Source: an uncultured bacterium (GTDB lineage Bacteria; Pseudomonadota; Gammaproteobacteria; Methylococcales; Methylomonadaceae). From it: DNA of 64,000 nucleotides. Shown here in pieces: positions 30,230-45,457 of the stretch; positions within the stretch are counted from its first letter, which is position 1, and the number at the start of each line of letters is the position of its first letter. The position numbers were made by a program, and so were the translations under genes. Where the stretch lies: positions 141-64,140 of the forward strand of contig CBDUDV010000014.1 of NCBI GenBank assembly GCA_965366065.1, written 5' to 3'. Below the pieces are notes generated by a model. It was not told where the DNA came from. It saw nothing but the letters and a program-made list of their open reading frames with translations, and made no database searches.

Positions 30230-31873
30230 TTACATCATGCCGCCCATTCCACCCATACCGCCCATATCTGGCATGGCCGGTGCAACACCGCCTTCAGCAG
30301 GCTCATCTGCGATCATTACTTCAGTGGTAATCATTAAGCCGGCAACCGACGCTGCATTTTGTAAAGCAGAGCGAGTTACTTTTGCAGGGTCTAAGATTCC
30401 CATTTCAATCATGTCACCATAAACCGCCGTTGCTGCATTGTAACCAAAGTTACCCATGCCTTTAGCCACTTCATTACACACAACAGAGGCTTCATCTCCC
30501 GCATTGGAAACGATTTGGCGTAAAGGTGCAGACATTGCGCGACGTAGAATATCAACACCGATTTTTTGATCGTGGTTAATACCTTCAACGCCTTCTAATG
30601 CCGAGATAGCACGAACTAACGCAGTACCGCCACCGGCAACAACGCCTTCTTCAACGGCTGCGCGAGTTGAATGTAATGCATCTTCAACACGTGCTTTTTT
30701 CTCTTTCATTTCAACTTCAGTTGCCGCACCGACTTTAATCACTGCAACCCCGCCCGCTAATTTAGCTAAACGTTCTTGGAGCTTCTCTGTATCGTACTCA
30801 GACGTAGCTTCGTCCGCTTGTGCGCGAATTTGAGAAATACGTGCTTTGATATTATCTTCAGAACCCACACCATCAACAATCACCGTAATTTCTTTGCTGA
30901 TCTGTACTTTCTTCGCTGTGCCTAATTGATCTAATTCAACTTTTTCTAAAGATAAACCGATTTCTTCAGAAATAACCGTGGCGCCTGTTAAAACAGCCAC
31001 ATCTTCTAACATGGCTTTACGTCGATCACCAAAGCCCGGTGCTTTAACAGCCGCTACTTTAACAATGCCACGCATATTATTAACCACTAAGGTTGCTAAC
31101 GCTTCGCCTTCAACATCTTCAGCAATAATTAAAAGAGGACGACCTGCTTTAGCAACGCCTTCTAAAATAGGTAATAAATCACGGATATTAGAGATTTTTT
31201 TATCAAATAATAAGATGAAAGGGTTTTCAAGTTCAACACTCATGCTGTCTTGGTTATTGATGAAGTAAGGTGATAAATAACCCCGGTCAAACTGCATGCC
31301 TTCAACCACATCTAACTCATTATCTAAGCCCGTGCCTTCTTCAACGGTAATAACACCCTCTTTACCCACTTTCTCCATTGCATCAGCAATGATTGCACCG
31401 ACAGATTCATCAGAGTTAGCAGAGATAGTTCCTACTTGTGCAATTGCTTTGTTATCAGTACAGGGTGTTGCAGAAGCAATAATTGCTTCAACTGATTTTG
31501 TTACTGCTAAATCAATACCGCGTTTTAAATCCATGGGATTCATGCCCGCAGCAACTGATTTTAAACCTTCGTTTACGATTGCTTGCGCTAATACTGTTGC
31601 CGTTGTTGTTCCGTCACCCGCGACATCAGACGTTTGAGATGCAACTTCCTTAACCATCTGTGCGCCCATGTTTTCGAACTTATCCGCAAGCTCGATTTCT
31701 TTCGCAACCGATACACCATCTTTAGTGATCGTGGGCGCGCCAAAGCTTTTATCTAAAACCGCATTACGACCTTTGGGTCCTAATGTTGCTTTTACCGCGT
31801 TAGCTAAAATATTTACGCCATTTGCCATCAAGCTTCGTGCGTCATCTCCAAACTTTACTTCTTTTGCTGCCAT
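30230..31873 (-). CDS. groEL: Chaperonin GroEL, copy A
   Basis: [22 protein letters not shown] tail. Confidence 0.98.
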
Positions 31874-31959
31874 GTGTTGTTTACCTGAATGATTTGAGTT
31901 TATTAAATATAAGCTAATGCACTGGAAAAACAGTGCGACATTAATTCTTTAAGCTTAGT

Positions 31960-32244
31960 TTATAGAGTGGCCATAATATCGTCTTCACGCATGACGATTA
32001 AGTCCTCACCGTCCACGGTGACTTCACTACCTGAATATTTAGTAAATAACACATGATCTCCGACTTTAACGTGCATTTCATGTAGTGATCCATTGTCTAA
32101 AACTTTACCAGAACCAATAGCGACAACTTTTCCTTCGCTAGGCTTTTCTGTTGCCGAACCTGGTAGTACGATGCCACTTGCAGTGGTTGTTTCTTCTTCA
32201 ACGCGTTTAATGACAACACGGTCGTGTAGAGGTTTAATCTTCAT
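31960..32244 (-). CDS. groES: Co-chaperonin GroES, copy A (divergent)
   Basis: [21 protein letters not shown]. Confidence 0.95.
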
Positions 32245-32282
32245 TATTTTCTCCTTGTTAATAATTGATAGTGATTAGGGTT

Positions 32283-32951
32283 TTATTGCATTGTCGCGAC
32301 ATCGGATGTTTCGTCTACTTCAATTTCTTGCTGCTTTTTTTGAATAATATAGCGACCGAATTCTTGTAATGTGTGTACGGAGACTGGAATAGCATCCATA
32401 AGATTAATAGTTAAGCGAGACTTCCATTCGTCACTACTAAACTCTTCTTTGGTGTTTTTCTTTATTGATTCTAATAAGTCGGTTGTATCAAATTCCTCAT
32501 CAGCTAAAGCTCTAAAAACTTCAACACTACTGACAATAGAATCTGATTTAGCCGAATTTTTTATCATGAATGGTGTGCTCCATACCGGTAGACGTAAGGA
32601 TAAACCGAACCAAAAACCATGAGACCAGTTGTAAATATTATCAAATACAGTCTCATCTAAATTTTTAATATCGAAAGGATAGCTTAGCTCCCCTTTGTGT
32701 CTTAATGCCGTGTAGTGAGAAAAGCAGTCCATCAAGAATTCAGCTAAATCTTTAGCCGTTTCATCCTCTTCAAAAACAGCAAGGTCGCCATAAAAAGGGG
32801 CGGGCAACCATTCGGTAGGTTTAATTAAATCAGGTGTAATAACCAGCGCATGCATAAATCCTTCTAACTCTTTTTGATTAAAACAGCCACCAGGAATATT
32901 AATCGGTGCAAAACGTAATTGAAATCGGTCTTCTAGTTCTTTAGTAAGCAT
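32283..32951 (-). CDS. UPF0149/YecA-family protein
   Basis: ELEGFMHALVITPDLIKPTEWLP and WSHGFWFG motifs. Confidence 0.7.
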   Translation of the reverse strand: MLTKELEDRFQLRFAPINIPGGCFNQKELEGFMHALVITPDLIKPTEWLPAPFYGDLAVFEEDETAKDLAEFLMDCFSHYTALRHKGELSYPFDIKNLDETVFDNIYNWSHGFWFGLSLRLPVWSTPFMIKNSAKSDSIVSSVEVFRALADEEFDTTDLLESIKKNTKEEFSSDEWKSRLTINLMDAIPVSVHTLQEFGRYIIQKKQQEIEVDETSDVATMQ

Positions 32952-32993
32952 AGGTTTGAAAATCCAAGGGTATAAGAAGTGATGTTAGGTGAT

Positions 32994-43367: not shown

Positions 43368-43403
43368 TTAAGTTTTGAAGGTGAAAATAGGTTAAATAGT
43401 TAT

Positions 43404-43447
43404 AAAAAAAGCCCCCTCCCTGATTAGCTCAAGGAGGGGGCTTTTTT
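43404..43447 (-). terminator. Bidirectional terminator between mmoR and groEL copy B
   Basis: aaaaaaagccccctcc...ggagggggctttttt. Confidence 0.85.
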
Positions 43448-43472
43448 GTGTAACGAGTTTAAGCGGGGGAGC

Positions 43473-45125
43473 TTACATCATGCCGCCCATTCCACCCATA
43501 CCGCCCATGCCGCCCATATCAGGCATTGCAGGAGCTGCGCCAGCTTCAGCAGGTGTATCAGCTACCATCACTTCAGTAGTAATCATTAATCCGGCAACCG
43601 ATGCTGCATTTTGTAATGCAGAACGAGTTACTTTTGCAGGGTCTAAGATTCCCATTTCAATCATGTCGCCATATTCGCCAGTTGCTGCGTTGTAACCAAA
43701 GTTACCAGTTCCATTAGCCACTTCATTGCATACAACAGAGGCTTCATCACCTGCGTTAGCAACAATTTGACGTAAAGGAGCAGACATTGCACGACGTAGA
43801 ATATCAACACCGATTTTTTGATCGTGGTTAATGCCTTCAACACCATCAAGTGCTGCAATAGCACGAACCAATGCAGTACCACCACCAGCTACAACGCCTT
43901 CTTCAACTGCCGCGCGAGTTGAGTGTAATGCATCTTCAACACGTGCTTTTTTCTCTTTCATTTCAACTTCAGTTGCTGCGCCAACTTTGATTACTGCAAC
44001 ACCGCCAGCTAATTTAGCTAAGCGCTCTTGAAGTTTTTCTTTATCGTAGTCAGACGTTGCTTCATCCGCTTGGGCACGAATTTGGCTAATACGTGCTTTG
44101 ATGCTATCTTCAGAACCGACACCATCAACAATCACTGTAATTTCTTTAGTGATTTGTATTTTCTTTGCTGTTCCTAATTGCTCTAGTTCAACTTTTTCAA
44201 GTGAAAGACCAATTTCTTCAGAAATGACGGTTGCGCCTGTTAATACCGCAATATCTTCTAACATTGCTTTACGACGATCACCAAAGCCTGGTGCTTTAAC
44301 AGCAGCCACTTTAACGATACCACGCATATTATTAACCACTAATGTCGCTAGCGCTTCGCCTTCAACATCTTCGGCAATAATTAATAAAGGACGGCCTGCT
44401 TTCGCCACGCCTTCTAATGTCGGTAGTAAATCACGGATGTTAGAGATTTTTTTATCGAACAATAAGATAAAAGGACTCTCTAGCTCAACGCTCATGCTTT
44501 CTTGATTGTTGATGAAATAAGGCGATAAGTAACCACGGTCAAATTGCATCCCTTCAACAACATCTAACTCGTTGTCTAAACCAGTGCCTTCTTCAACGGT
44601 AATAACGCCTTCTTTACCAACTTTTCCCATTGCTTCTGCAATGATTTGGCCAACAGACTCATCAGAGTTTGCAGAAATTGTACCTACTTGAGCAATCGCT
44701 TTGTTATCAGTACACGGTGTTGCAGATGCAATAATCGCTTCTACTGATTTTTTTACTGCTAAATCAATACCGCGTTTTAAATCCATAGGATTCATGCCCG
44801 CAGCAACAGATTTTAAACCCTCGTTTACGATTGCTTGCGCTAATACAGTCGCAGTTGTTGTTCCGTCACCGGCAACATCAGAAGTTTGTGAAGCCACTTC
44901 TTTAACCATTTGCGCGCCCATATTTTCGAATTTATCTGCTAATTCGATTTCTTTCGCAACCGATACACCATCTTTAGTGATCGTTGGTGCGCCAAAGCTT
45001 TTATCTAAAACCGCATTACGACCTTTAGGTCCTAATGTTGCTTTAACTGCGTTAGCTAAAATATTTACGCCATTCGCCATCAAGCTACGTGCGTCATCTC
45101 CAAACTTTACTTCTTTTACTGCCAT
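43473..45125 (-). CDS. groEL: Chaperonin GroEL, copy B
   Basis: Canonical motifs; longer GGM tail. Confidence 0.98.
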
Positions 45126-45169
45126 GTTCTTTTTTCCTAAATTGAATGTGTTATATAAATGAGCTTGAA

Positions 45170-45457
45170 TTAAGCCAAGATACCCATGATGTCTTCTTCG
45201 CGCATAACGATCACTTCATCGCCATTTACTTTAACTTCAGAACCTGAATATTTGCCAAATAATACTTTATCGCCAACTTTAACTTCTAAAGCGCGTACGG
45301 TACCGTTATCAAGTTGTTTGCCGTTACCAACAGCTAAAACTTCACCTTCACTTGGTTTTTCTGTTGCTGAACCTGGTAGTACAATCCCGCCTGCAGAGGT
45401 TGTTTCTTCTTCTACACGTTTAACGATCACACGATCATGTAAAGGGCGTATATTCAT
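45170..45457 (-). CDS. groES: Co-chaperonin GroES, copy B (canonical)
   Basis: [30 protein letters not shown]. Confidence 0.97.

Follow-up and report, generated by a model that had tools for sequence, protein, structure and literature searches.

In the stretch of 64,000 nucleotides (nt) analysed here (called the window), from an uncultured bacterium of the Methylomonadaceae (GenBank assembly GCA_965366065.1, contig CBDUDV010000014.1, positions 141 to 64,140 of the forward strand), a complete gene cluster for soluble methane monooxygenase (sMMO) lies between two groES-groEL (groESL) operons that point in the same direction. This arrangement raises the question of whether the sMMO genes entered, and can leave, the chromosome by recombination between the two groEL copies, as an earlier note on this DNA had proposed, or whether one of the two chaperonin operons came together with them. 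Comparison with related loci leads us to favour the second answer: the locus is probably a stably inherited single insertion which carried its own chaperonin genes, and the groEL of this island (groEL-A) seems to have been repeatedly overwritten by the resident copy (groEL-B).

In the history that we propose, an ancestor shared by a small group of uncultured, Methyloprofundus-like methanotrophs would have received a segment of ~13.3 kb (about 30132-43400) in the spacer that separates a mutS-related gene from the terminator of the housekeeping groEL. The segment would comprise the A-type terminator, groEL-A, groES-A, a UPF0149 gene, the hypothetical gene hyp193, mmoXYBZDC, an orf, mmoG and mmoR, and would thus hold a chaperonin operon of its own, hyp193-UPF0149-groES-groEL, divergent from mmoX, which would be under the control of σ54 and MmoR. 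The sMMO genes would be bracketed by two groESL operons because the island landed beside the resident groESL in the same orientation. Afterwards, non-reciprocal homologous recombination would have turned groEL-A into the resident type, with conversions continuing independently in each lineage, while groES-A would have remained a separate conserved lineage, presumably through selection for a specialised co-chaperonin.

Layout of the locus

The geometry described in the earlier note is correct, as the list of open reading frames (ORFs), a repeat finder and family scans all place groES-groEL twice, in the same direction, on the two sides of the sMMO genes. The parts of the locus are given below with their positions in the window; loci of other genomes and contigs are designated by L numbers.

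28506 to 30131, plus strand: MutS-related gene, the left chromosomal flank; of the MutS domains, NCBIfam and Pfam scans find just MutS_III and MutS_V; in synteny with the loci L002 and L338, where the site is empty
30163 to 30203, minus strand: A-type intrinsic terminator of groEL-A, AAAAAAGCCTCACCCATTATGAAAATGAGTGAGGCTTTTTT, at the left end of the presumed inserted segment
30230 to 31873, minus strand: groEL-A, 547 amino acids (aa), a canonical GroEL (NCBIfam NF009488, 875 bits)
31960 to 32244, minus strand: groES-A, 94 aa, a divergent, island-linked co-chaperonin lineage (147 bits in the family scan)
32283 to 32951, minus strand: UPF0149 (YgfB/YecA-like) gene (TIGR02292 and PF03695 matches)
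32994 to 33575, minus strand: hyp193, 193 aa, first gene of the putative leftward operon; no curated family matched in the NCBIfam and Pfam scans
34005 to 34020, plus strand: σ54 promoter consensus TGGCACACTCGTTGCA, a perfect pattern match 132 nt before the mmoX ATG
34152 to 39325, plus strand: mmoX (start at 34152), mmoY (35770), mmoB (36959), mmoZ (37391), mmoD (38022) and mmoC (38291), for the sMMO hydroxylase, regulatory protein, MmoD and reductase
39347 to 39631, plus strand: orf94, 94 aa, in the orf1/mmoE position, kept between mmoC and mmoG across loci
39703 to 41388, plus strand: mmoG, a GroEL-like chaperonin (family scan and alignment; 40% identity to GroEL-A)
41601 to 43367, plus strand: mmoR, a σ54-dependent activator (Sigma54_activat-type family matches), last gene of the presumed inserted segment
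43404 to 43447, minus strand: B-type terminator of the housekeeping groEL, GCCCCC...GGGGGC class, the same class and GTTTAAGCGG untranslated region (UTR) as in L002 and L001
43473 to 45125, minus strand: groEL-B, 550 aa, the housekeeping GroEL (883 bits on NF009488; 96.4% amino acid identity to the L002 GroEL)
45170 to 45457, minus strand: groES-B, 95 aa, the housekeeping GroES (163 bits in the family scan)
45594 to 46340, plus strand: moeB, which with pqqBCDE forms the right chromosomal flank (NCBIfam match; synteny with L002 and many genomes)

The sMMO cluster is complete and has the order mmoXYBZDC. The mmoY, mmoB, mmoZ, mmoD and mmoC products score above the NCBIfam equivalog cut-offs; no NCBIfam model matched mmoX, which was identified by its 97% identity to annotated sMMO loci and by PF02332 on its orthologues. 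The accessory set is present as well (mmoG, mmoR and a -24/-12 promoter before mmoX), and the alignment shows that the apical motif GYLSPYF is retained in MmoG, as are the residues that correspond to L237 and L259. In both chaperonin copies, a Cpn10 gene precedes a Cpn60 gene whose product scores above the GroEL cut-offs and has a GGM C-terminal tail. The mutS-like gene on the left falls far short of the cut-offs for MutS and MutS2 and is devoid of the mismatch-binding domain; it is widespread and single-copy in the Methylomonadaceae, with neighbours that vary.

The two groESL copies are distinct

The two GroEL proteins differ at 26 aligned residues, the very number that the earlier note had estimated, plus a 3-aa indel in the GGM tail, and the two identical nucleotide runs reported there are exact (53 nt from 30672 and 43924; 44 nt from 30372 and 43624). 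A further identical run of 48 nt (30218/43461) covers the stop codon and 12 nt of the 3' UTR. The length of these runs is unremarkable, the probability of a longest run of at least 53 nt being 0.16 after shuffling codon columns. Nucleotide identity between copies A and B is ~87% for groEL (200 of 1599 aligned positions differ) and ~72% for groES, the GroES proteins differ at 27 of 94 residues, and the spacer between groES and groEL measures 86 nt in copy A and 44 nt in copy B. The similarity that had been seen to run past the groEL stop codon is real, but it corresponds to an ordinary conserved groEL 3' UTR and terminator, which is also found in the orthologues of other species.

Repeated conserved genes often give misjoins, and the public contigs L001, L250 and L340 break within groEL. 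Nevertheless, that an assembly or binning artefact produced the second groESL copy is hardly conceivable, as each junction is reproduced across different samples and assemblers. The mutS|groEL-A...mmo junction is present in the independent JGI contigs L241, L242 and L339, and the mmoR|groEL-B|groES-B|moeB junction in L246 (a 115-kb contig with 98.9% identity over 20 kb), in L248 (99.5%) and in Logan contigs of the runs X2-X4. Since both junctions recur in independent assemblies, the duplication is real and not an artefact of assembly, the outcome that the earlier note had named as one that would undo its proposal. The 200 differing positions and the distinct groES genes, spacers and terminators of the two copies likewise speak against an artefact.

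Copy B is the housekeeping operon and copy A probably part of a separate unit

The order moeB|groES-groEL is kept in ~45 Methylomonadaceae loci among the matches listed, and the GroES-B protein is identical in L002, L249, L250 and L251 (nonsynonymous distance, dN = 0). This conserved synteny and this identity in relatives identify copy B as the housekeeping groESL. Copy A is no simple duplicate of copy B, because groES-A belongs to another lineage. GroES-A-like proteins (83-99% identity) were found solely on a handful of metagenome contigs; UPF0149 precedes groES-A in every one of these contigs that reaches upstream, and those of greater length also include the complete sMMO cluster and the mutS-related gene. 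Among the matches listed, a GroES-A scan of the GTDB species representatives gave no protein of this type above 80% identity, and scans of genome contigs with GroEL-A and GroES-A returned generic chaperonin peptides and no A-type copies. Both copies are under purifying selection, the ratio of nonsynonymous to synonymous distances (dN/dS) being ~0.04-0.10 among A-types.

The start of groES-A, which has its own ribosome-binding site, lies 38 nt after the UPF0149 stop codon. This short spacing makes a unit hyp193-UPF0149-groES-A-groEL-A, divergent from mmoX, likely, and we infer that the four genes are co-transcribed as one operon.

In more than 20 sMMO loci of the Methylococcales (tblastn, 22-48% identity), for example L084, L087, L094-L099, L108, L116 and L120, hyp193 is again found upstream of mmoX and divergent from it, and it is often followed by UPF0149. 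The two genes look like an undescribed conserved pair associated with sMMO.

Signs of sequence exchange between the groEL copies

The groES and groEL genes of the A operon give incongruent trees. In neighbour-joining trees of codon alignments, the A-type groEL genes form a clade with the groEL-B of the window (wB) and with L002C that receives 95-100% bootstrap support, and monophyly of the A-types themselves is recovered in 20-40% of the replicates. In the groES tree, the A-types are monophyletic at 100% and the B-types at 99%, whereas a clade uniting A and B obtains 0%; the A-type groES joins another Methyloprofundus group and L256 with 75-77% support. The derived residues point the same way, as GroES-A is ancestral at four of the five positions that are derived in the GroES of the resident clade, whereas GroEL-A has all four of the residues (4/4) that are derived in that clade.

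Fixed differences between A- and B-type groEL number only 11 nucleotides, most of them in the region 450-900 or at the 3' end. In the quartet (wA,wB)|(L241A,L250B), where wA is the groEL-A of the window, the informative sites fall 45:21:15 in favour of within-genome pairing, a distribution that departs from equal thirds (chi-square p ~1e-4), and they are concentrated at 0-300 and 1200-1500. The L241A protein is 97.6% identical to L250B compared to 93.6-95.8% to the other A-types. In a Sawyer-type run test, none of 2000 permutations was as extreme as the L241A/L250B pair (p < 0.0005, ~80 nt), the pairing of L250 with L241 being presumed; the same test gave p = 0.027 for wA/wB (~35 nt).

Taken together, the incongruent trees, the quartet and the run tests indicate that the groEL copies have exchanged sequence by gene conversion. 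The A operon accordingly appears as a mosaic, in which the groES is distinct and conserved and the groEL would have been overwritten, and would occasionally still be patched, by the resident copy. Of the earlier idea of recombination between the copies, exchange is thus supported; excision and integration through groEL, examined below, are not.

Empty and occupied sites in relatives

It had been predicted that sMMO-free relatives would show the order mutS-like/groEL/groES/moeB with a single groEL. This is what was found in L002, a metagenome-assembled genome (MAG) of Methyloprofundus sp. (assembly GCA_028599115.1, contig JAQRMR010000103.1), which has hemN, the mutS-like gene, groEL, groES, moeB and pqqBCE, one groESL and no mmo genes, and which is collinear with both flanks of the window, from orf1169 to the gene at 50304. 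Of the 120 MmoX hits, the 80 that were listed include no contig of this MAG. L338 resembles L002, with hemN, a GGDEF gene, the mutS-like gene, a PNPOx-like gene and then a B-type groEL. The site is occupied in at least four uncultured Methyloprofundus-like lineages, namely the window, L339 (91% nucleotide identity), L241/L242 (88%) and L244/L340, and the island-bearing lineages are 9-12% diverged. The island therefore shows a presence/absence polymorphism at a conserved chromosomal site. The linkage of UPF0149 to groES-A is also seen in L341.

The tree of the mutS-like gene is ((window, L242), (L001, L002)), its outgroups are without any mutS-groEL adjacency, and L338 and L001 share ~92.5% nucleotide identity across hemN and the mutS-like gene. 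On these grounds, a single gain is the most parsimonious reading. A metagenome scan with the mutS-like protein revealed no new lineage of the local clade, and an exact look-up of the window's own version of this protein gave no record. Other sMMO clusters of the same broad group (L081-L085, MmoX 96-97%) reside at unrelated loci, with no groEL within 10 kb.

The neighbourhood shows several indels besides the sMMO island. L242, L338 and L340 have a MASE1-PAS-GGDEF gene (~690 aa) between hemN and the mutS-like gene, and this gene is missing from the window (28322-28505), L339, L001 and L002; the PNPOx-like gene of L338, between the mutS-like gene and groEL, is another case.

Terminators and route of entry

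The hairpin core of the A-type terminator, GCCTCACCCATTATG[A/G]AAATGAGTGAGGC, is kept in all five of the A-type sequences compared (window, L339, L242, L244 and L340), with one loop base changed in L340, and the A-type UTR GTAAAAGCGG is conserved in the same five sequences despite their 9-12% divergence. Neither copy B nor the empty sites have this A-type terminator: a terminator of the GCCCC class is accompanied by the GTTTAAGCGG UTR in copy B, L002 and L001, and by another UTR in L338. As a crossover between copies A and B would leave an A-type terminator behind, the empty sites are not products of such a crossover, and a single insertion into the spacer between the mutS-like gene and groEL reads better. 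The L002 groEL showed no switch point when tested as an A/B hybrid.

The left copy bears the island-specific A terminator, UTR and 3' coding signature, and the right copy those of the native class. Had integration through groEL been of the Campbell type, the native 3' end would stand on the left and that of the incoming DNA on the right. The arrangement observed is the reverse, which disfavours entry by this route and with it the suggestion that groEL homology had served as the integration site.

It should be noted that L001 (DAOUSK010000032.1) joins, at 11608-12118, an empty-type terminator to a groEL 3' end 96% identical to groEL-A, with flanks only ~80% identical to the window. In the runs in which L001 is found, a window-like organism occurs 2-4 times deeper, its island and flank both being present at 92-97% identity. 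Horizontal re-acquisition of the island at the same site was considered as an explanation of L001 and set aside, given this deeper organism and a switch that falls within the shared 48-mer. The contig is probably chimeric, joined through the conserved 48-mer, and users of that MAG should treat it with caution.

Stability of the island

The ORFs of at least 80 aa in 30132-43472, nested ones excepted, are the chaperonin, UPF0149, hyp193 and mmo genes, and there is no integrase, recombinase or transposase among them. There is no tRNA gene within 16 kb, the sole one in the window being at 61848; the repeat finder gave no att-like short repeats, the groESL copies being the only repeats; and there is no shift in GC content, which is 0.34-0.44 inside the island compared to ~0.40 outside. 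Deletion-prone islands flanked by direct repeats and homology-facilitated recombination are known in bacteria. The present locus resembles them in its direct homologous segments 13.25 kb apart and in the presence/absence polymorphism among relatives. It differs from them in that the repeats are essential genes diverged by 13% rather than att sites or insertion sequence copies, that integrase, tRNA and compositional signatures are missing in and around the island, and that the empty sites are not crossover products.

The deletion of about 13 kb foreseen in the earlier note is permitted by the geometry: after a reciprocal crossover in groEL, 13.25 kb would be lost, and the A terminator, a hybrid groEL and groES-B would remain. 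Between copies that are 13% diverged, such an event can occur but should be rare, and its product was not encountered. In the Logan k=31 contigs of four metagenomes (X1-X4), whose sensitivity is low and from which rare events would escape, neither a hybrid-groEL junction nor an excised circle, the two signs that it had been suggested to look for, nor an island-free subpopulation was detected, and no joint passes from A to B in register. Joints that skip ~13.2 kb do occur in these contigs and were rejected as deletions, since all of them are out of register, contain unmatched letters or have 20-30 nt on one side; they appear to be groEL genes of other organisms or effects of the k-mer graph. 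The ratio of island to flank contig depth is ~1:1 in the four metagenomes, with depths in X2 of 3323-3881 for the flanks and 3421-3879 for the island. RecA-dependent recombination can proceed only at a much reduced rate between copies that are 13% diverged and have identical runs of at most 53 nt. Such a low rate fits both long-term retention of the island and sporadic conversion.

Weighing the possible origins

An alternative origin, in which a circle of groEL and sMMO genes integrated at groEL by a Campbell-type single crossover and could be excised through the same homology, groEL being a recurrent sMMO hotspot, is in our view rather unlikely. It draws on the direct orientation of the copies, their 87% identity with identical runs of 44-53 nt and the evidence that they recombine, on the empty site of L002, which has exactly the predicted form, and on L001, with its empty-type terminator joined to an A-type groEL 3' end. 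However, the empty sites are without the A-type terminator expected from an A x B crossover, the island-type terminator on the left and the native-class one on the right are the reverse of a Campbell product, L001 is probably chimeric, and no in-register hybrid contigs were seen. The island is moreover kept in at least four lineages with a depth equal to that of its flanks, and the other sMMO clusters of the group have no groEL nearby. Since one event of gain or loss suffices to explain the data, there is no evidence for the gain/loss hotspot that groEL had been supposed to be. Another possibility is a local tandem duplication of the resident groESL, with sMMO inserted between the copies and groES-A then diverging fast under new selection. 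This origin would account for a groEL-A of the resident type, and the divergence between copies at 4-fold degenerate sites is not significantly higher for groES (0.50 +/- 0.09) than for groEL (0.40 +/- 0.03). We nevertheless consider it unlikely. The ancestral states that GroES-A holds at four of the five resident-derived positions would require four exact reversals, GroES-A has a KVLDNG..H..H motif in common with another Methyloprofundus group and L256, groES of the A and B types never group together (0% bootstrap), and the terminator, UTR and groES-groEL spacer (86 and 44 nt) of copy A are unlike those of copy B.

Several points also weigh against a single insertion followed by conversion of groEL-A, the origin that we prefer. 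L250 is paired with L241 only by their common sample and matching divergence. The synonymous sites of groEL plateau at ~0.4 (4-fold sites), and because of this saturation the conversions cannot be dated. The contrast in synonymous distance (dS) by the method of Nei and Gojobori (NG86), at least 1.5 for groES compared to 0.6 for groEL, was rejected as a threefold age gap, being inflated by replaced codons; with this contrast dropped, the incongruence argument rests on the derived-state and bootstrap analyses. The polarity of the event, presumably a gain, relies on few lineages and on short terminator sequences, and terminators evolve fast outside the A-type. The MAG of L002 may be incomplete, so that its sMMO-negative status is provisional, and no donor with linked groES-A and sMMO was found outside the island-bearing clade.

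Possible role of the island-borne chaperonins

In E. coli, the sMMO hydroxylase needs GroESL in order to fold (PMC9324122; bioRxiv 10.1101/2021.08.05.455234). It has been noted that a standard GroES is missing from known sMMO operons, which has raised the question of what closes MmoG (PMC9324122). As GroESL is needed for this folding, as MmoG keeps its apical residues for the binding of GroES and substrate and as groESL is also found upstream of mmoX in Methylophilaceae-type MAGs, it is reasonable to regard copy A as a chaperonin operon that may be dedicated to, or co-regulated with, sMMO. On this basis we infer a functional tie of groESL-A to sMMO folding. A more specific proposal, which we put forward tentatively, is that groES-A, probably with groEL-A, UPF0149 and hyp193, forms a dedicated sMMO maturation module in which GroES-A is specialised, for example as a lid for MmoG. 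If this were true, the specialisation would explain how groES-A resists the conversion that overwrites the adjacent groEL-A, and the clade would be the first in which an sMMO cluster comes with a complete set of chaperonins of its own.

Folding of the hydroxylase is the main obstacle to the expression of sMMO in other hosts, and co-expression of GroESL gave activity in E. coli. The conserved sMMO-linked GroES paralogue, together with GroEL, UPF0149 and hyp193, offers concrete candidates for this folding, and it is a more novel element of the locus than the groEL repeats.

The gene order and content, the σ54 promoter and MmoG are those of the canonical Methylococcales sMMO operon (mmoXYBZDC-orf1/mmoE-mmoG and mmoR, as in Methylomonas methanica MC09, Methylovulum miyakonense and Methylotuvimicrobium buryatense 5G), and MmoX is 88-97% identical to that of relatives with this operon. 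Unlike in the canonical operon, a divergent groES-groEL with UPF0149 and hyp193 lies directly upstream here, and a second groESL directly downstream.

Several groEL copies exist in rhizobia, mycobacteria, cyanobacteria and Methylococcus capsulatus, and groEL or groESL paralogues that undergo concerted evolution are known in bacteria. As in bacteria with multiple groESL, the window has two full operons under purifying selection whose groEL copies seem to be kept alike by exchange. By contrast with these bacteria, conversion here appears confined to groEL, and the catabolic cluster between the paralogues encodes an enzyme known to depend on chaperonins as a client. The locus would thus offer a clean natural case in which, of the two genes of a duplicated operon, one is homogenised by conversion and the adjacent one is not. 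It suggests, too, that a catabolic island of 13 kb can persist over the long term between direct repeats of an essential gene; a role of groEL as a general entry or exit point for sMMO is unsupported by it.

Other sMMO loci

In the Methylophilaceae-type MAGs L131 (1-650) and L132 (3-158), a canonical groEL<-groES pair stands directly upstream of, and divergent from, an mmoX-led cluster, and the N-terminus of the GroEL is 85% identical to that of the window. These loci belong to a different class (Betaproteobacteria, MmoX 84%), have no UPF0149 or hyp193 between the two gene sets and end in the order mmoC-mmoR-mmoG. They represent a second, independent linkage of groESL to sMMO.

In the left part of the window, GC content falls to 0.31 at 3001-4000, and 3245-4861 is without an ORF of at least 100 aa.

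In L082 (Methyloprofundus sp. chromosome NZ_OZ252594.1, 14227-21162), the tblastn matches of mmoC and mmoG are split by ~1.3 kb and ~2.4 kb, which suggests that insertions interrupt the sMMO cluster of this genome. The MAG contig L092/L124 (CAVPMI010000038.1) has two mmoX genes ~14 kb apart, with a full sMMO cluster and a second mmoX followed by mmoR, and UPF0149 after mmoR. Finally, a Methylophilaceae MAG (L134-L136, JABFRO010000001.1) carries at least four mmoX copies, two of which are adjacent.

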